DNA of 29,133 nt from a virus (lineage: Duplodnaviria; Heunggongvirae; Uroviricota; Caudoviricetes), in the IMG/VR virus record IMGVR_UViG_2648501318_000010, positions 1 to 29,133 of that record. One strand, given 5' to 3'. The translations under genes were made by a program, and so were the position numbers. Numbering within the stretch: position 1 is the stretch's first letter; every line of letters starts with the position of its first letter. Below, piece after piece: positions 1-29,133 of the stretch. The notes under the pieces are model-generated. The model was not told the DNA's origin. It worked only from the letters and a program-made list of their open reading frames with translations, and searched no databases.

Positions 1-228
1 GATGCTTCAACTAACATGTTGGCTTGCGGGCGTTCATGCTCAGAAACAAGGTTGGGACAAGCACTTCCAGGCTAACACAGTCAGAAATCGAAACGTACTC
101 TCAACAGTTCGCTTAGGCATGGAAGTTTTGCGGCATTCTGGCTACACAATAACAAGGGAAGACTTACTCGTGGCTGCAACCCTACTAGCTCAAAATTTAT
201 TCACACATGGTTACGCTTTGGGGAAATT

Positions 229-1236
229 ATGAGGGGATCTCTCAGTGCAGAGCATTACTTCTCTTCTTCAGCTAGTGATGACGGGGATAAAACTTATGCT
301 CGTATGGGTTTCAAAGGTGAAACTCAGATTAATGACCAGTTAACCGGTTTTGGTCAGTGGGAGTACGAATTTAAAGGTAACCGTACTGAAACTGAAGGTT
401 CTGATAAAGACAAAACTCGTCTTGCGTTTGCAGGGCTTCGCTTTGGCGATTATGGTTCGCTCGACTATGGTCGCAACTACGGTGTAGCGTATGATGTTGG
501 CGCTTGGACTGACGTGCTGCCGGAGTTTGGTGGAGATACCTGGACTCAGACTGATGTATTTATGACCCAGCGTGCTACTGGCGTCGCGACCTATCGTAAC
601 AATGATTTCTTCGGCTTGGTTGATGGTCTGAACTTTGCTTTGCAGTATCAGGGTAAAAATGATAGTGCTGCAAAAGTGAACAACTGGAAAGGCCGCGACG
701 TAGTTGAATCTAATGGTGATGGCTTCGGTCTGTCAGCTACTTATGATTATGAAGGATTTGGCATTGGCGCAACTTATGCAAAATCTGACCGTACTGATGG
801 ACAGGTATCCTATGCTAATGCAAGCTCTCTGAATGCTTCTGGTAAAACAGCTGAAGTATGGGCTACTGGTCTGAAATATGACGCAAACAACATTTACCTG
901 GCTGCAACTTATTCTGAAACTCAGAATATGACAGTCTTCGGTGATGACTTTATCGCAAACAAAGCGAAAAACTTTGAAGCTGTTGCTCAATACCAGTTTG
1001 ATTTCGGCCTGCGTCCGTCCATCGCTTACCTGCACTCTCGCGGTGAAAATATTGGTGCGTTCGGTAACCAGGATCTAGTTGAATACATCGACGTAGGCGC
1101 GACTTATTACTTCAACAAAAATATGTCCGCTTTCGTTGACTACAAGATCAACCTGATTGATGAAAGTGAATTTACCAAAGCATCTGAGGTTGCAACCGAC
1201 AACATCGTTGCTGTTGGTATGACCTACCAATTCTAA
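229..1236 (+). CDS. Outer membrane porin of the OmpF/OmpC/PhoE family, 5'-truncated: no signal peptide and missing roughly the first 25-30 residues of the mature protein; likely a remnant or pseudogene
   Basis: Translation aligns along its length with classical 16-strand porins ([84 protein letters not shown]-terminal YQF). The ORF starts at the equivalent of the mature-protein HYF motif, so the signal peptide is absent; upstream DNA in all frames is unrelated to porin. Confidence 0.7.
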
Positions 1237-2976: not shown

Positions 2977-5707
<2,731 letters not shown>

Positions 5708-12574: not shown

Positions 12575-13015
12575 ATGGCCACACTATCTGATACAATAAA
12601 ACCGAATAAAACATATCTTGAGGCGGTACTCCGTACAGCGTTGTTAGGAAAGACAGAAGACGAATACGTTGATTTCTTCCTGTCAGGGCTACGCGGGCGA
12701 TTACTGAAAAATCCCCGCCTGTACCGCAGCTATGGTCCATACTGGCCGGAAATTAAAAAATTATTACTGGAGCGCGGTTATGGTAATTTCGGTCGTCTCG
12801 TTGACCGTGACGTTCGCAAAATTTACCGTTATGACCGCCCGGCGCTGACGCTCATAGCCGCGACGCTCTACAGCCAGGAGCGTTTTGATAATGGTCAGAT
12901 ATACTCAGCCTGGCATTTACTGCCAGTACCTGAAGAGGTTGACGACCAGGACTATGAGTTTGAGTCTTACGATTTGGAAGTTGAAGCCTTAGCACAGGCT
13001 GGAGAGAAAACTTGA
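12575..13015 (+). CDS. ulx: Hypothetical protein at the position of P1 ulx (upstream of lxc)
   Basis: 146 aa ORF immediately after darB whose stop overlaps the TTG start of the next ORF (TTGA). Assignment by synteny only. Confidence 0.45.
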   Translation: MATLSDTIKPNKTYLEAVLRTALLGKTEDEYVDFFLSGLRGRLLKNPRLYRSYGPYWPEIKKLLLERGYGNFGRLVDRDVRKIYRYDRPALTLIAATLYSQERFDNGQIYSAWHLLPVPEEVDDQDYEFESYDLEVEALAQAGEKT

Positions 13016-13260
13016 AAAAGCGATACTACACAGTAAAGCATGGGACGCTACGAGCATTACAAGAGTTTGCTGATAAGCATAACGTTGAGGTGCGCAGGGA
13101 GGGGGGAAGTAAAGCTCTGCGCATGTACCGTCCGGACGGGAAATGGCGTACGGTCGTCGATTTCAAAACTAACAGCGTTCCCCAGGGCGTCCGCGACCGG
13201 GCATTCGAAGAATGGGAGCAGATCATCATAGATAACGCATTGCTTCTGAATGCTGATTGA
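13012..13260 (+). CDS. lxc: Lxc/Bof-like modulator of C1 repressor action
   Basis: 82 aa ORF with a TTG start; P1 bof/lxc is recalled as an 82-codon gene with a TTG initiation codon, located next to darB/ulx. Confidence 0.55.
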   Translation: MKKRYYTVKHGTLRALQEFADKHNVEVRREGGSKALRMYRPDGKWRTVVDFKTNSVPQGVRDRAFEEWEQIIIDNALLLNAD

Positions 13261-13335: not shown

Positions 13336-14088
13336 TCACAAGGTAATATCGCTGTCTTTAATATTATTATTGACTTTCGCCCTTAGTACAGCAACTTGAA
13401 TAACAGCAGGAATTGTTACTCGATAAGCAGTTCCTCCCACATCTACAATGGTCCATGCGGCTGTTATAGCCCAACCAATTGGGCCTGTTAAAATAGATAA
13501 TGCTTTTACGAGTATTTGATTACCTGCGAGTGTTAAACCGCGTCCAATTAAAATTTTTAGTAAAAGATTCGCAAATTTAAGAGTTACCTGATAAGATCTG
13601 AAACCGCCGGCCCTGAAAATATATTGGAAGGCAGATAGAACTGCCTCAGGAGTAAATCTTGTAACTTCATCCAATCCAAGTTCCATGGCAAAAACTTTTA
13701 TATCTTCGGATGACATGTTATCTAGAGAGTCGCTGAGAATTTTTAATAGAAGATTTTGTTCAATAACCTCTATTCGGCTCTTGGCATTGAAATTAACCTT
13801 TAGCTTATTGCATACATCAATGAGAATTTCTCTGTAGCAGACCCCTTTACCACCACGCAAGAGAGTTGCTATGGTATTTCCACCATAACATTGAATTTCA
13901 GCAGCAATTTCTCTCCAATATACGCTATGTCTTGGTGCAAATTCCTTATATTGTCGATTGTTAGATAACTCTTCAGTCCATCTTTTTTTGCCATCGTTAT
14001 CATAAATCAATAGGTTAACTAAATCATCAAGATCACGGTCGCTACATTTAGCTAGGAATTCAAGATCGCTGTCTTTTCTGTATGCCAT
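13336..14088 (-). CDS. YaaW-like protein (DUF3944 N-terminal region plus UPF0174-type C-terminal region), function unknown
   Basis: 250 aa with a GGAG RBS 7 nt upstream of the ATG. The N-terminal DSDLEFLAKCS motif and C-terminal GTAYRVTIPAVIQVAVLR motif resemble E. coli YaaW as I recall it. The C-terminal third is hydrophobic and the coding region is AT-rich. Confidence 0.55.
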   Translation of the reverse strand: MAYRKDSDLEFLAKCSDRDLDDLVNLLIYDNDGKKRWTEELSNNRQYKEFAPRHSVYWREIAAEIQCYGGNTIATLLRGGKGVCYREILIDVCNKLKVNFNAKSRIEVIEQNLLLKILSDSLDNMSSEDIKVFAMELGLDEVTRFTPEAVLSAFQYIFRAGGFRSYQVTLKFANLLLKILIGRGLTLAGNQILVKALSILTGPIGWAITAAWTIVDVGGTAYRVTIPAVIQVAVLRAKVNNNIKDSDITL

Positions 14089-14103: not shown

Positions 14104-14577
14104 TTAAATCAAGTCATCTCTTAGATTTTTAGCTACAACCATATAAAATGTTGCATATTTCATAATAATATCATCAAATTCTTTGTCTAAAACACTTCCA
14201 AGTTTCCCGTCTATAAATTTCCTCATAACGTTATTCATTCCATGTGTTTTAGCAAATATATTTTTTCCGTCTATTAAATTATCATCCTCAACAGGAGAAT
14301 AAGATACACTCCATCCACATTTGATTAAGTTTTTTGCCGATTTTGTGGAAATATCAAGAAGTATGGTTGCATCAATATTAATGATTTTACAGAATTTCAT
14401 CATATTCTCTACAGAGAGAGAGGACTTACCATTTTCAATTTTTCCCCAGCCGGCACTTGTTATCCCAAGGCCAGATGCAATGTCTGATTGAGTAACACCA
14501 TGCTTCTCGCGAAAATCGCGAATATGGAAAGCCAATATAGTTAAATAGGATGTTTTCATATGGGTAATGATACTCAC
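14104..14577 (-). CDS. XRE-family helix-turn-helix protein with a C-terminal domain of unknown function
   Basis: HTH_XRE signature (GVTQSDIASGLGITSAGWGKIENGKSSLSVENMMKFCKI) in the N-terminal half. Its stop is 15 nt upstream of the YaaW-like ATG, so the two form an operon. The true start may be the ATG at 14559 (the track start at 14577 is GTG); neither has a clear SD. Confidence 0.6.
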   Translation of the reverse strand: MSIITHMKTSYLTILAFHIRDFREKHGVTQSDIASGLGITSAGWGKIENGKSSLSVENMMKFCKIINIDATILLDISTKSAKNLIKCGWSVSYSPVEDDNLIDGKNIFAKTHGMNNVMRKFIDGKLGSVLDKEFDDIIMKYATFYMVVAKNLRDDLI

Positions 14578-14677: not shown

Positions 14678-14699
14678 ATGCCCGGCATCAACCGGGCAT
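14678..14699 (-). terminator. Hairpin just downstream of the ant-like gene
   Basis: 8-bp stem ATGCCCGG/CCGGGCAT with a 6-nt loop, 8 nt after the ant stop; the following stretch is only moderately U-rich. Confidence 0.35.
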
Positions 14700-14706
14700 T
14701 CTTCCA

Positions 14707-15825
14707 TTATTCAGCCGCCACCGGTTTTAACAAGCCAGCATCGAGCAGTTTACGCGTCAACCACTGCTGGCCTTTACCCGTTAATTGAGGCGTCAACCGT
14801 ATCTGGTAGCCATCTTCATCATCCAGCACCACTTCTTTCACCGTGAAATATCCCGCATTGATGTACTGCTGGAACGGCACATTTTTACGTCCACCGGACG
14901 CTATCAGGATGCCGTTCTCCCGTAACCAGGCAAACAGCGCGTTTTGCTTAAGACCAACAACCTTTGCAAAATTCCCAATCAGGATCCCTTTAGCTACTGA
15001 TACCCGGTCGGCAAAATCGACCTTAGGGGCTGCGGCCACCAGCTGCTGATTTAGCTGGTGGGCTTTCTGTTCCAGAAGCTGCTTTTGTTCAGCCAGTTCG
15101 GCAGCCAGGCGCAGAGCTTCTGGAAGCGTCTGGGGGATTGCAACCGGTTGCTGTTCTTTTTGCCGGAAGTAGCTGTCTTCCAGTTTTTCAAAGAATGCCC
15201 ATGCCTGATCGGTTTCGAGCATTTTAGCGTGGCGGGCTGCGCCGCGTTCTGTCCAGAGGGTGAGTGAGCGAACATTGCGAGCAATTTTTACAGAGTAGTT
15301 TAAAGCTACTCTGTGCTTCAACTCGCGCAATGATTCTCCTTCAACTTTGAAAAAGTGCTTCCCTTCAACAAAGCGTACTTTGTTCTCATGATGATTTTGG
15401 CGAATACGGATTGTTTCTGTCCCATACCCTCTAGCAAGAGTCTCGGTTGTCACTACACGCACTCCCTGCCATTCCAGAACGGGAATTTCATCAGACTGAT
15501 TCTGAACAACCACCAGCTCCGATTCCTGAACTGAAGGTGCATAAATTTTTTCTGATTTAACGTTAGTTGCTTTCATTCTGTGTGCCTCCTTGCGTGCTTC
15601 GGCTGCGGCGGTTGCGTAATTCAGATGACCCTGTTCGAGCAGGTATTCGCGGATATCAGACAACAGGATACGGTGAACCGCGTTCTTGTCCTTTCTCCGG
15701 TAAAGTTGTTTGGTGATCATGAAGTAGTTGGCAATAACGCCTGGTATATCCCTGGTACTGATACAGGCAGTGTGCTGTTCAATTGCCTCGATCATCTCTT
15801 CACGGGTGACTAATGACGTTCTCAT
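14707..15825 (-). CDS. ant: Phage antirepressor (Ant-like; KilA-N/ORF6N-type domain plus KilAC/ANT C-terminal domain)
   Basis: 372 aa. The central region resembles the ORF6N/KilA-N DNA-binding domain and the C-terminus (FAKVVGLKQNALFAWLRENGIL...) the antirepressor KilAC domain. It is preceded by a translationally coupled small ORF and a c4-like RNA region, as in P1 immI. Confidence 0.7.
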   Translation of the reverse strand: MRTSLVTREEMIEAIEQHTACISTRDIPGVIANYFMITKQLYRRKDKNAVHRILLSDIREYLLEQGHLNYATAAAEARKEAHRMKATNVKSEKIYAPSVQESELVVVQNQSDEIPVLEWQGVRVVTTETLARGYGTETIRIRQNHHENKVRFVEGKHFFKVEGESLRELKHRVALNYSVKIARNVRSLTLWTERGAARHAKMLETDQAWAFFEKLEDSYFRQKEQQPVAIPQTLPEALRLAAELAEQKQLLEQKAHQLNQQLVAAAPKVDFADRVSVAKGILIGNFAKVVGLKQNALFAWLRENGILIASGGRKNVPFQQYINAGYFTVKEVVLDDEDGYQIRLTPQLTGKGQQWLTRKLLDAGLLKPVAAE

Positions 15826-16043
15826 AGTCCCTCCTGAACAGAAGCGTTAACAGGGAGGCACCAGTAACTGAGAGAATTGCGCGAGTCAGTAGAAAAGCGT
15901 GCGGAGAAAATGCAGGGAGCATCCGGAAGCTGAGAACGTGCCTCATCTTCTGTTGTTGCGATAACGAAGTGATAGTGACGTTTCTGGCAGGAGTAAAAGC
16001 GCCAGATAAATTCAGGGCGTGCGCAAGGATTGGCATTAACCAT
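15822..16043 (-). CDS. icd: Small icd-like ORF translationally coupled to ant
   Basis: 73 codons from the ATG at 16043, with GAGG 8 nt upstream. Its TGA stop overlaps the ant ATG (ATGA). In P1 immI a small icd ORF overlaps the ant start and is the target of c4 antisense RNA. Confidence 0.5.
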   Translation of the reverse strand: MVNANPCARPEFIWRFYSCQKRHYHFVIATTEDEARSQLPDAPCIFSARFSTDSRNSLSYWCLPVNASVQEGL

Positions 16044-16094
16044 AGTTACGGCCTCGTAAGTTGATAAAACAACCTGCGACCCGCTGCTAAACAG

Positions 16095-16200
16095 GTGGCA
16101 GGACGTGACGGGGTTAGCAGACTGGCACTTACGAAACCAGCAGGCCGAAGCCTCCCCATCACGCCCCACCATAATTCGGGCGTAACGTGGTTATACGGAC
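16095..16200 (-). ncRNA. c4: c4-like antisense repressor RNA (boundaries approximate)
   Basis: On the minus strand the segment CGGCCT-(8 nt)-CGTAAGT (plus-strand about 16127..16147) is exactly complementary to ACTTACGAGGCCG, which covers the icd-like RBS (plus-strand about 16049..16061). It sits inside a GC-rich region that can fold into stem-loops and lies downstream of the C1 operator pair. This is the a'/b'-a2/b2 arrangement described for P1 c4 RNA. Confidence 0.4.
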
Positions 16201-16344
16201 ATGAAAATACCGCAATATCGGATATCTGCGGTTGTCCGCGTAAGTATTCAGGCTGCTAAACCCGGTCGCAGAATTTGCTACGACGGCATGAATATAAGCC
16301 TGAACGGTAAGGAGATCAATAGGGCTATGCGCAATGGTAGGATA

Positions 16345-16377
16345 TTTGCTCTAATAAATCAAATTTATTAGAGCAAT
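16345..16377. promoter_or_regulatory. Overlapping inverted pair of C1-repressor operators (Op51-like)
   Basis: TTTGCTCTAATAAATCA (16345..16361) and, on the other strand, a perfect ATTGCTCTAATAAATTT (16361..16377). The pair lies upstream of the c4/icd/ant unit and about 100 bp upstream of the divergent lipoprotein gene. Confidence 0.65.
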
Positions 16378-16476
16378 GAGGGTTGTGTGTTATTTTTGCT
16401 CATGTTGAGCGTCATGGAGAATTGAAATTTGTTTAAAACCTTGGCAACCTACTGTTTTTAATGCACTTAATAAGGT

Positions 16477-18323: not shown

Positions 18324-18340
18324 CAATCAATTAGAGCAAT
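18324..18340 (-). promoter_or_regulatory. C1 operator-like site upstream of ref
   Basis: Minus strand ATTGCTCTAATTGATTG (11-nt core match), about 100 nt upstream of the ref ATG; ref is known to be C1-controlled in P1. Confidence 0.5.
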
Positions 18341-20361: not shown

Positions 20362-20378
20362 AGAATTATTAGAGCAAT
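20362..20378 (-). promoter_or_regulatory. C1 operator (immC Op99-type) between loxP and coi
   Basis: Minus strand ATTGCTCTAATAATTCT. Confidence 0.6.
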
Positions 20379-20444: not shown

Positions 20445-20461
20445 ATTGCTCTAATAAATTA
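20445..20461 (+). promoter_or_regulatory. C1 operator overlapping a promoter reading toward coi/c1
   Basis: ATTGCTCTAATAAATTA, immediately preceded by a TTGACA -35 hexamer (20439..20444) and overlapping a TATAGT -10-like hexamer. Confidence 0.7.
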
Positions 20462-20699: not shown

Positions 20700-20909
20700 A
20701 TGGCTTTCATTCCACCAACCATCGACGACGTTAGACATTGCTCTAACGCTTTATCTGTAGACCCCGCCGAAACCGACGCTGCCCGCGCCATTGCTGAACA
20801 CTACTCAAAGATATCCAATCAGGAGTACCGCATCACCCAAGACGACCTGGATGATCTCACTGACACAATCGAATATCTCATGGCCACTAACCAGCCAGAC
20901 TCACAATAA
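20700..20909 (+). CDS. coi: Coi, C1-inactivator protein
   Basis: 69-aa ORF directly upstream of c1 with operators upstream; size and position match P1 coi. An operator-like ATTGCTCTAACG sequence lies inside the ORF (about 20737..20753). Confidence 0.8.
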   Translation: MAFIPPTIDDVRHCSNALSVDPAETDAARAIAEHYSKISNQEYRITQDDLDDLTDTIEYLMATNQPDSQ

Positions 20910-21019
20910 ATGCACTAATAAATCTATTATTTTCGTTGGATCCTTCTATAATGGTGGCCAACAACTCCCAGTGTAATCCGCTGTGAGTTGTTGGCCATGT
21001 CAATTCTGGAGGAGGATCA

Positions 21020-21871
21020 ATGATAAATTATGTCTACGGCGAACAACTGTACCAGGAGTTCGTCAGCTTCAGGGATCTCTTTCTAAAAAAAGCTGTTGCA
21101 CGCGCCCAACACGTTGATGCCGCCAGCGACGGTCGTCCTGTACGCCCGGTTGTCGTTCTGCCGTTCAAAGAAACTGACAGCATTCAGGCTGAAATTGATA
21201 AATGGACTTTAATGGCGCGGGAACTGGAACAGTACCCAGACCTCAATATCCCAAAGACTATTTTATATCCAGTGCCTAACATCCTTCGCGGTGTGCGTAA
21301 GGTTACAACTTATCAGACAGAAGCTGTGAACAGCGTCAACATGACCGCTGGCCGCATTATTCATCTGATTGATAAGGACATTCGCATCCAGAAAAGCGCG
21401 GGGATCAATGAGCACAGTGCGAAATACATAGAGAACCTGGAAGCAACAAAAGAGCTAATGAAGCAGTACCCGGAGGATGAAAAATTCCGTATGCGTGTAC
21501 ACGGCTTTAGCGAAACAATGCTGCGCGTCCATTACATTTCCAGTAGCCCTAACTACAATGATGGTAAATCAGTTAGTTACCATGTGCCGCTGTGTGGTGT
21601 GTTTATCTGCGATGAAACTCTCCGTGATGGAATCATCATCAACGGTGAATTCGAGAAAGCAAAATTTAGCCTTTATGACTCTATAGAACCGATCATCTGC
21701 GACCGCTGGCCGCAGGCAAAAATATATCGCCTGGCAGATATTGAAAATGTAAAAAAACAAATTGCCATCACTCGCGAAGAGAAAAAGGTCAAATCAGCCG
21801 CATCAGTTACGCGCAGCCGTAAAACTAAGAAGGGGCAGCCAGTAAACGACAACCCCGAAAGCGCGCAATAG
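21020..21871 (+). CDS. c1: C1 repressor of lysogeny
   Basis: 283 aa, the size of P1 C1; N-terminus MINYVYGEQLYQEFVSF as I recall for C1; flanked by coi, operators and loxP. Confidence 0.9.
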   Translation: MINYVYGEQLYQEFVSFRDLFLKKAVARAQHVDAASDGRPVRPVVVLPFKETDSIQAEIDKWTLMARELEQYPDLNIPKTILYPVPNILRGVRKVTTYQTEAVNSVNMTAGRIIHLIDKDIRIQKSAGINEHSAKYIENLEATKELMKQYPEDEKFRMRVHGFSETMLRVHYISSSPNYNDGKSVSYHVPLCGVFICDETLRDGIIINGEFEKAKFSLYDSIEPIICDRWPQAKIYRLADIENVKKQIAITREEKKVKSAASVTRSRKTKKGQPVNDNPESAQ

Positions 21872-25181: not shown

Positions 25182-25198
25182 CAATACATTAGAGCAAT
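25182..25198 (-). promoter_or_regulatory. C1 operator-like site upstream of lpa
   Basis: Minus strand ATTGCTCTAATGTATTG, about 70 nt upstream of the lpa start. Confidence 0.55.
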
Positions 25199-28651: not shown

Positions 28652-28891
28652 CTATTCTGTTTTCTGATATGCCGGATCGTTCCCTTTTGGCAACTGGAGG
28701 CTTAACTGCCGGTAGTGCCGTAGACGTTCCATGAAATAGGTGCGCAGATTCTCTGGTTGCTCGCGGGCTACCTGTTCAGCTATGACAGGTATGTTCAATC
28801 GCTCTTTGTAGGCAACCCCCCTGGCAGCCAGGTCAACGTTAACTTTATTCCTTTCTTCCTGGCTTTTGGCTGCTATGTTCCATTCGTTCAT
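28652..28891 (-). CDS. hot: Hot, homolog of the DNA polymerase III theta subunit (HolE-like)
   Basis: About 79 aa from the internal ATG at 28891; the [32 protein letters not shown] motif closely resembles E. coli HolE. The ORF track extends 21 codons upstream. Confidence 0.7.
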
Positions 28892-29133
28892 CGATAGGAA
28901 TTTAAATCCCCAAAAGACTAAAAAAGCACCACAAAACGGATATTTCTTCAACACCCCTTGTGCACCATATGAGCGGAAACGACTATTAAACAGGATGACA
29001 CTGATTGATACAGGGTATGAATGGCGGTTTTTTGCTCCGTTTCCGGTAAAATGGACGCAACTTCCCCTCTGCGGCTCTCAGCCGCACACCTGCTGTCGTG
29101 CCAGTCGCTCATGCATCAGGACCAGCTCTGCCA

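Follow-up and report, generated by a model that had tools for sequence, protein, structure and literature searches.

In phage P1 the immI region is controlled by a small antisense RNA, c4, which silences an antirepressor gene (ant); the mechanism is summarised in PMC5320573 and PMC8198154, and according to the same two sources RNase P cuts c4 at the GGW motif of its 5' end. The annotated P1 record gives the targets as a (TTGACAG) and b (GTTAGTGA/C), complementary to the elements a' (CUGUCAA) and b' (UCACUAAC) of c4. Here we analyse a stretch of 29,133 nucleotides (nt) of DNA (positions 1 to 29,133 of the IMG/VR virus record IMGVR_UViG_2648501318_000010, hereafter the window), in which the minus-strand segment 16377-14707 is in all likelihood an intact immI operon of the P1 type, carried by a P1-like plasmid-prophage of Escherichia coli, working by the P1 mechanism and present as an ectopic copy. 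The immI reading is based on homology, structure, complementarity, covariation, intact open reading frames (ORFs) and location, whereas the processing of c4, Rho polarity, the target of Ant and regulation by C1 in this module are proposed by analogy with P1.

The module is a genuine but ordinary copy of the P1 immI switch. Its kind, its detectability with Rfam, its host plasmids and the icd/ant homologues of plasmid pSvP1 are known already, and as a textbook, Rfam-recognised module in sequenced plasmids it changes very little by itself. What goes beyond the textbook case is its ectopic position, an apparently bivalent operator, an Ant of the ORF6N type, and the pattern in which such modules occur in the population.

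A complete immI operon on the minus strand

Along the minus strand the segment contains, in this order, the C1 operators, promoters resembling P51a and P51b, the sites a1/b1, c4, the sites a2/b2, icd, and ant1 with ant2 nested within it. Alignment to the annotated P1 record gave a positional counterpart in the window for each annotated feature of P1 immI (operator, two promoters, a1, b1, c4, a2, b2 and the icd start), and among deposited phages megablast matched the immI regions of P1, P7, SJ46, RCS47 and D6. An earlier note, made from the letters alone, had proposed an immI-like module at this place, with C1 operators, a c4-like RNA, an icd-like ORF and ant. Its coordinates and motifs were all recovered on the minus strand when recomputed, without loss of the complementarity, and the proposal is upheld by the Rfam scores, by positional homology to P1, by the identity of the products to those of P1 (84% for Icd and 60% for Ant) and by the NCBIfam family phage_ICD_like; the alignment to c4, icd and ant of P1 and P7 that it had suggested as a check revealed similarity for all three.

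The Rfam model of the C4 antisense RNA (RF01695) matched positions 16176-16091 of the minus strand over its whole length (model 1-87 of 87) with 70.8 bits, against a gathering score of 45, and the match of a second Rfam family, the leader element c4-a1b1, ends 69 nt upstream of it. With P1, c4 shares its 5' GGU, an instance of the GGW motif, as well as a 17-bp terminal stem and a CCACC at the 3' end. Folding, another check proposed in the earlier note, predicted a stable structured RNA, the 77-nt c4 having a minimum free energy (MFE) of -45.7 kcal/mol (z -5.19; 0 of 200 shuffled sequences equally stable) and being composed of the 17-bp terminal stem, a UUCG-capped hairpin 1, a hairpin 2 and a 3' ACC tail. 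It is the Rfam matches and the covariation described below, not word counts, that set the module apart from chance: the 7-mer ACTTACG has four sites in the window against 2.25 expected, which is not significant by itself, but three of these four are grouped in 190 bp, where they correspond in position to b1, b' and b2 of P1.

Evidence for a two-site contact of c4 with its targets

All four complementarities between c4 and its targets (a'-a1, a'-a2, b'-b1 and b'-b2) are exact. The accessibility of the contacts was judged by the duplex energies of short elements and by unpaired probabilities, the latter with a mean of 0.96 (minimum 0.92) for a' and of 0.86 (minimum 0.48) for b'. The site b2 covers the first two bases of the Shine-Dalgarno sequence of icd (GAGG, 16055-16052).

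For comparative evidence IMG/VR was scanned for exact matches to a 28-mer from the invariant part of c4, and at least 120 loci were found. The 120 IMG/VR loci among the matches listed, together with P1, P7, D6, the window and three loci of the E. coli plasmid record NZ_CP122822.1 (two of them overlapping), make up 127 module instances, and covariation was counted on an alignment of the 35 distinct sequences from those loci. The helices of b' with b2 and with b1 both showed compensatory changes in 6 of 7 pairs (for b'-b2 up to three pair types), with 99.6% and 100% of cells paired, respectively, and those of a' with a2 and with a1 showed them in 2 of 7 pairs each, with 100% of cells paired in both. 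When the partners were slid by 1-3 columns as a control, 26-53% of cells were paired. The comparative evidence for a two-site interaction at this locus is thus strong, and the contacts are those of the a'/b' scheme, not of an interrupted 13-nt duplex.

This bears on the pairing described in the earlier note, in which CGGCCT, 8 nt (GCTGGTTT) and CGTAAGT face the 13-mer ACTTACGAGGCCG (16061-16049). The complementarity is exact as described and the 13-mer does cover the ribosome-binding site of icd, containing its GAGG Shine-Dalgarno sequence and ending 5 nt before the ATG at 16043-16041, but CGGCCU lies within hairpin 1 and is probably no contact, and a', a1 and a2 had been missed. The second, partial target reported there, ACTTACGCGG, is present at 16245-16236 and is b1, homologous to b1 of P1.

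More distant relatives were sought in two ways. A scan of IMG/VR with the 15-mer CCGGTTTGCCAACCC from the Rfam consensus gave 29 matches, 28 of which were chance occurrences in coding DNA and one a true divergent c4 (locus L140), while a profile search of genome contigs with the Icd alignment gave three close relatives, too close to test the pairing of hairpin 1. L140 is an environmental c4 homologue at 3220-3420 of IMGVR_UViG_3300016659_000153, with an a' (UUGCCAA) that matches a downstream TTGGCA and a 10-nt complement of its b' (AATCAAGGAA) lying over the Shine-Dalgarno sequence of the next ORF.

Operators, promoters and encoded proteins

The coordinates of all elements are collected in Table 1.

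Table 1. Elements of the immI-type module and its putative repressor gene in the window.
Feature	Position	Strand	Basis
C1 operator (Op51/Oc4 homologue), ATTGCTCTAATAAATTT	16377-16361	-	17/17 to P1 operator consensus; aligns with P1 'monovalent C1-controlled operator Oc4'
Second, inverted C1 operator-like site, TTTGCTCTAATAAATCA	16345-16361	+	14/17 to consensus (3 mismatches)
P51a (P2c4)-equivalent weak promoter; -35 TTTGATT 16363-16357, -10 TACCAT 16339-16334	16334..16363	-	Predicted from positional homology to annotated P1 P2c4 hexamers
P51b (P1c4)-equivalent promoter; -35 TTGATC 16319-16314, 17-nt spacer, -10 TATATT 16296-16291	16291..16319	-	Consensus scan 9/12; aligns with P1 P1c4 TTGACC/TATAGT
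Leader element c4-a1b1, two hairpins presenting a1	16297-16245	-	Rfam RF03163, 54.6 bits against gathering 46.7, E 2e-11, model 1-53 of 53
a1 target TTAGCAG, complement of a'	16259-16253	-	Aligns with P1 'a1 target site'; covariation with a'
b1 target ACTTACG, complement of b'	16245-16239 (with the P1 8-nt annotation, 16245-16238)	-	Alignment and covariation
c4 antisense RNA, predicted mature 77 nt, GGU start, CCACC end	16170-16094	-	Ends by homology to P1 misc_RNA c4
CGGCCT, the last two bases of the UUCG loop (CG) and the 3' strand GCCU of c4 hairpin 1	16147-16142	-	Paired in MFE and Rfam consensus
b' loop of c4 hairpin 2, UCGUAAGU	16134-16127 (CGTAAGT 16133-16127)	-	Unpaired in fold; covaries with b1, b2
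a' single-stranded junction of c4, CUGCUAA (CTGCTAA)	16120-16114	-	Unpaired in fold; covaries with a1, a2
a2 target TTAGCAG (UUAGCAG), 3 nt past c4 3' end	16090-16084	-	Aligns with P1 'target site a2'; covariation
b2 target ACTTACGA (RNA ACUUACGA)	16061-16054	-	Aligns with P1 'target site b2 ... repression of icd ant translation'; covariation
icd, inhibitor of cell division, 73 aa, leader ORF for ant	16043-15822	-	84% identity to P1 and P7 Icd; NCBIfam NF033153 phage_ICD_like 50 bits against cutoff 25; PHROG 1426
ant1, antirepressor, 372 aa	15825-14707	-	60% identity to P1 Ant1; PHROG 63 'anti-repressor Ant' 440 bits
ant2, 289 aa, in-frame internal start ATG 15576-15574 (Met84), AGGAGG 15590-15585	15576-14707	-	Predicted from sequence; aligns with annotated P1/P7 Ant2 start (..EAHRM..)
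c1 (283 aa), repressor gene whose product would act in trans on the operators	21020..21871	+	Same ORF annotated 'phage repressor protein C1' in NZ_CP122822.1

The overlapping C1 operator pair of the earlier note was confirmed: the perfect site and its inverted partner share one base and together form a palindrome with 14-bp arms. The pair looks bivalent, and binding of C1 to it is predicted from the sequence. The same perfect-plus-inverted arrangement recurs in other modules of the window type (ectopic), whereas canonical modules show a single site. When as many as 3 mismatches are allowed, 8 operator-like sites are counted in the window where 0.16 would be expected, an excess that fits a P1-like prophage, and c1 itself lies in the same window, 4.6 kb from the module. 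The six sites outside the module (1978-1994, 18324-18340, 20362-20378, 20445-20461, 20909-20925 and 25182-25198) have 1-3 mismatches, and operator-like sites cluster directly upstream of c1 (21020). As to promoters, the -35 of the P51a-like element falls within the operator pair, and upstream of c4 the consensus scan picked up a single promoter-like site, the P51b-like one.

The stop codon TGA of icd overlaps the start codon ATG of ant1 at 15825-15822, which is the ATGA coupling of a 73-codon to a 372-amino-acid (aa) ORF given in the earlier note. Its description of the latter as a KilA-N/KilAC antirepressor was correct for KilAC (PF03374, 110 bits) and not for KilA-N, no match to PF04383 being found at E <= 0.01. 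The Pfam domains of the protein are ORF6N (PF10543, residues 116-202, 70 bits) and ANT/KilAC (residues 260-361), whereas P1 Ant1 has KilAC alone; P1 KilA, the positive control, gave both KilA-N and KilAC. Compared with P1 Ant1, the N-terminal 85 aa are 63% identical and the KilAC part 87%, and about 125 central aa are replaced. Among the loci sampled, Ant N-termini of the window type (at least 94% identical) form a lineage of their own, joined to ORF6N or to other central domains; kilA never follows such an ant, and the perfect-plus-inverted operator pair often precedes it. Past the ant stop, at a distance of 8 nt, the minus strand has a GC-rich 8-bp hairpin (AUGCCCGG-uugaug-CCGGGCAU, 14678-14699) without a U-tract, which was not among the reports of the terminator scan and could be a transcript-stabilising or weak terminator element.

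Location of the module and its closest relatives

The module is ectopic, as it occupies the position of res-mod in P1, between mat and lxc/ulx/darB. The canonical immI position, with sim or a replacement of it upstream and kilA-repL downstream, is not the one found here: upstream of the module are a small lipoprotein gene, mat, ref and cre, and downstream of it a helix-turn-helix (HTH) gene, a DUF3944/JukA-like gene and then lxc/ulx/darB. The plasmid unnamed6 of E. coli ETEC1731 (NZ_CP122822.1), 99.96-100% identical to positions 246-28891 of the window, is annotated in the order pacA/B, c1, cre, ref, mat, small lipoprotein gene, [c4]-icd-ant, HTH gene, DUF3944 gene, lxc/ulx and darB, and over the 581 bp of the c4 region the window shows 100% identity to this plasmid and to pSvP1 (NZ_MN510446.1). 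In pSvP1 the hot-spot RD-1 was reported to hold 'homologs of P1 icd-ant1/2' and a putative regulator in place of res-mod (Venturini et al. 2019, PMC6906374); for this locus that paper mentions neither the antisense RNA nor its targets nor the operators. The tables of NZ_CP122822.1 likewise have no RefSeq RNA annotation at the locus, and for the E. coli records matching a c4 query (16084-16176) the entry was 'annotated features under the match: none' in 12 of 12 among the matches listed. Some annotation value therefore lies in the c4 RNA, which is unannotated by RefSeq in the P1-like E. coli plasmid records inspected.

About 60 kb from this locus, NZ_CP122822.1 has a second, canonical immI comprising c4, a1b1, icd, a 347-aa Ant, kilA and repL. 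It agrees exactly with the window module in c4 and in all four target sites, and differs from it in having a monovalent operator and another promoter-proximal sequence. Because the two c4 sequences are identical, one c4 species should repress two ant operons in this lineage.

The hot-spot position is not the only one in which a cassette of this kind is found. An ant of the window type (ORF6N/KilAC), at 91-98% identity, lies directly beside c1 in many P1-like plasmids (E. coli genome matches H109-H116, e.g. NZ_CP021203.1 and NZ_CP042894.1), at the same site as the pacB-c1 insertion described in RCS47 and pTZ20_1P (PMC6906374). Since ant of this type occurs both at the res-mod site and beside c1, the cassette is present in at least two different hot-spots.

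Several observations concern the neighbouring genes and the ends of the window. Directly downstream of ant, the DUF3944 protein (250 aa, 13336-14088, minus strand) matches the PADLOC entry for JukA, a protein of anti-phage defence (221 bits, E 3e-66), and is preceded by a 157-aa XRE-type HTH gene (14104-14577, minus strand); no JukB match was obtained among the ORFs scanned against PADLOC, which comprised part of the neighbours only. The JukA-like/HTH pair and the immI copy share the hot-spot that is occupied in P1 by the EcoP1 restriction system. Two ORFs of 82 and 146 aa lie at 12575-13260 (plus strand), between the JukA-like gene and darB. The 146-aa protein matches the PHROG 'Ulx-like anti-restriction', and the 82-aa ORF, named by no library, corresponds in size and position to Lxc (immT), the co-repressor of C1 in P1. 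The ends of the window (1-245 and 28884-29133) depart from NZ_CP122822.1, the latter matching that plasmid inverted and about 9 kb further on; the source plasmid seems to lack, or to have rearranged, a type I restriction-modification segment disrupted by an insertion sequence (IS).

Proposed mechanism

If the module works as its P1 counterpart does, transcription would start from the P51b-like promoter and from the weaker P51a-like promoter overlapped by the operator, both lying downstream of the C1 operator pair. C1 would limit transcription at the operator, and the constitutive P51b-like promoter would still yield a c4-icd-ant transcript carrying a1/b1, c4, a2/b2, icd and ant1/ant2 in that order. 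From this transcript c4, with its long acceptor-like stem and two hairpins, would be cut to about 77 nt, RNase P making the 5' end by analogy with P1. The loop b' (UCGUAAGU) is expected to pair with b2 (ACUUACGA) and to occlude the icd ribosome-binding site in part, and a' (CUGCUAA) with a2 (UUAGCAG), 22 nt upstream of b2; both elements may also pair with the leader sites a1/b1. With icd translation blocked, the coupled ant1/ant2 would not be expressed, an effect that in P1 is exerted through Rho-dependent termination inside the untranslated icd. Where c4 control fails, or a genome with a non-matching c4 enters, the division inhibitor Icd and Ant would be made, and Ant would antagonise C1.

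A possible specificity code in the population of modules

The window allele combines an a of the P7 type (TTAGCAG) with a b of the D6 type (ACTTACG). Among the matches listed, the modules that could be parsed carry two a-types (TTAGCAG and TTGACAG) and six b-types, namely GATTGTG (P7), ACTTACG (D6 and the window), GTTAGTG (P1), GTACATG, ACGAATG and ACTTGTG, with 11 of the 12 a/b combinations seen; a' and b' are exact complements of a1, b1, a2 and b2 in all of these modules but one. The combination of P7-type a with D6-type b was considered as a new immunity class and rejected, as it is the second most frequent allele of the IMG/VR sample (among the matches listed) and as 132 of the 549 E. coli records matched by a 93-nt query, which covers c4 together with a2, agree with it at 100% identity.

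c4 was found in 536 of 5,426 complete E. coli genomes (~10%), in up to 5 copies each, and among the matches listed there are contigs with up to four modules. Co-resident modules differ in their c4 code in 10 of the 11 multi-module genomes sampled, and the hot-spots in which cassettes are found are the res-mod site, the site beside c1 and canonical immI. On single P1-like contigs of about 100 kb, three or four c4 modules can each have their own a/b combination, as in IMGVR_UViG_2703718869_000013 (L021, L056, L104 and L125) and 651053023_000001, the UMNF18 plasmid (L018, L081 and L108). In the UMNF18 plasmid two divergently oriented modules are about 1.8 kb apart, one of them being the closest relative of the window module among the matches listed. 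The sole mismatched module among the 127 is L047 (IMGVR_UViG_2565956613_000015), a canonical immI whose b' (CATTCGT) fits its own b1 and not its own b2 (GTTAGTG), and this b2 matches the c4 of a second module of the same genome (L079, contig _000004), which suggests either cross-wiring in trans or a recent recombinant. A second c4+icd region has been described in a D6-like Salmonella prophage (PMC6799933), and no systematic treatment of multi-copy or combinatorial c4 was found in the literature searched.

From this pattern we tentatively propose, as an idea somewhat likelier to fail than to hold, that c4 constitutes a combinatorial address code of 2 a-types by at least 6 b-types, and that mobile cassettes, including that of the window, are stacked 2-5 at hot-spots for defence and offence in an RNA-coded immunity arms race among phage-plasmids, cases such as L047 hinting at cross-regulation in trans. 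If so, stacking would allow the Ant of a larger range of incoming relatives to be silenced (defence) and would arm a phage with several differently addressed antirepressors (offence). A modular a/b code, multiple cassettes and insertion at defence hot-spots could then explain which P1-like phage-plasmids coexist and which displace each other, a question that matters since P1-like elements carry resistance and virulence genes.

Alternative readings

The 13-nt pairing deserves separate consideration, as c4 might contact the icd ribosome-binding site by one interrupted duplex, CGGCCU and CGUAAGU against ACUUACGAGGCCG, covering the whole Shine-Dalgarno sequence without any role for a'. Such a duplex is exact in sequence, its isolated 6-bp part CGGCCU:AGGCCG is stable at -9.9 kcal/mol, and this part could form as an extension once b'/b2 has nucleated. 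MFE structure, centroid and Rfam consensus agree, however, in placing CGGCCU in the 3' strand of hairpin 1, which is capped by UUCG, and the unpaired probability of CGGCCU averages 0.35 (minimum 0.01). Both sides of the putative pairing are invariant in the 127 modules while a' and b' covary with their targets. The word used in the scan included hairpin 1, so that this invariance is partly by construction, and the 35 sequences, in which neither the c4 stems nor the CGGCCU:AGGCCG pair ever vary, are uninformative on either. In the divergent L140, hairpin 1 is different (ACGUC/GACGU), b' covers the Shine-Dalgarno sequence directly (AAUCAAGGAA) and no complement of hairpin 1 stands beside b2; moreover, the GenBank annotation of P1 and the literature place the contacts at a' and b'. 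Because CGGCCT is sequestered in hairpin 1 and invariant, and so draws no support from covariation, it is probably not a contact site, and we regard the single interrupted duplex as improbable.

The remaining alternatives concern the role of the whole module. It may be non-redundant, with an ORF6N Ant that targets another repressor or acts as an offensive anti-immunity factor, and with a c4 copy that mainly extends or strengthens immunity to superinfection by incoming P1-like phages of the same c4 type, which would be compatible with an intact immI operon; the central domain swap in Ant, the separate lineage of window-type N-termini with its several hot-spots (res-mod, beside c1) and central domains, and the co-residence of different specificities in most multi-module genomes point in this direction. 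Both modules in the lineage of the window share one specificity, however, so no immunity class is added there, and Ant is close to its P1 counterpart in the N-terminal and KilAC parts, which leaves this role possible yet rather unlikely. That the module is instead a decaying duplicate devoid of function, as the second copy in the closest relative and the high mosaicism of P1-like plasmids with their many IS-disrupted genes might suggest, is highly improbable in view of the intact ORFs, the conserved start and Shine-Dalgarno sequence of Ant2, the perfect operator, the 97-98% identity of the module to others and the three copies of each target that remain matched to c4. Scarcely credible, finally, is a type I toxin-antitoxin-like addiction module in which c4 is the antitoxin of Icd and stabilises the plasmid-prophage: Icd does inhibit cell division, an antisense RNA does block its translation and the plasmid family has other addiction systems (phd/doc and hok/sok), but c4 is a structured RNA of high stability and comes from the very transcript that contains its target, the opposite of the logic of an unstable antitoxin, the inhibition by Icd is described as reversible (P7 annotation), and the conserved coupling to ant indicates immunity control.

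Some points weigh against the preferred reading, that of an intact, ectopic immI operon working as in P1. The canonical second copy is seen in the 99.96-100% identical relative and not in the window, which ends short of the canonical locus. As the modules compared are close to one another and do not vary in the c4 stems, the internal structure of the RNA derives from the Rfam model and thermodynamics, not from covariation. With 8/12 the P51a-like promoter is weak; it did not reach the threshold of the consensus scan and was identified by homology only. The target of an Ant whose central domain is swapped for ORF6N need not be C1. Finally, the support for the module is sequence-based, with c4 processing, repression and Ant activity presumed by transfer from P1.

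Comparison with known systems

In the secondary immunity region immI of phage P22 a small antisense RNA (sar) likewise limits translation of an antirepressor gene, ant; RNA and proteins are unrelated to the c4 system, and P22 is not a member of the family. P22 immI is not known to have a leader ORF of the icd type or loop recognition at two sites.

With P1 immI the module shares order and spacing from the operator through the promoters, a1, b1, c4, a2, b2, icd and the ATGA coupling to ant1 and the nested ant2. The c4 RNAs of P1 and the window differ only in the a' and b' elements and at one stem position, and their specificities are accordingly distinct (a TTGACAG and b GTTAGTG in P1, TTAGCAG and ACTTACG in the window). 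The operator of P1 is single and annotated as monovalent, whereas that of the window joins a perfect site to an inverted partner; in the window ORF6N stands in place of the central domain of Ant; and P1 immI lies between sim and kilA-repL, whereas the window module lies between mat and lxc/darB, at the res-mod site. P7 immI has the a-type of the window (a' CTGCTAA, a1/a2 TTAGCAG) and the same overall architecture, but differs in b (GATTGTG, with b' CACAATC), in its canonical site by kilA-repL and in its monovalent operator. D6, on the other hand, has a P1-type a (TTGACAG), no recognisable C1 operator upstream, an Icd 51% identical and a Rha/Roi-like antirepressor of 235 aa, 20% identical, and yet it shares the b-type of the window (b' CGTAAGT, b1/b2 ACTTACG) and has a c4 region 90% identical to that of the window, the best among deposited phages.

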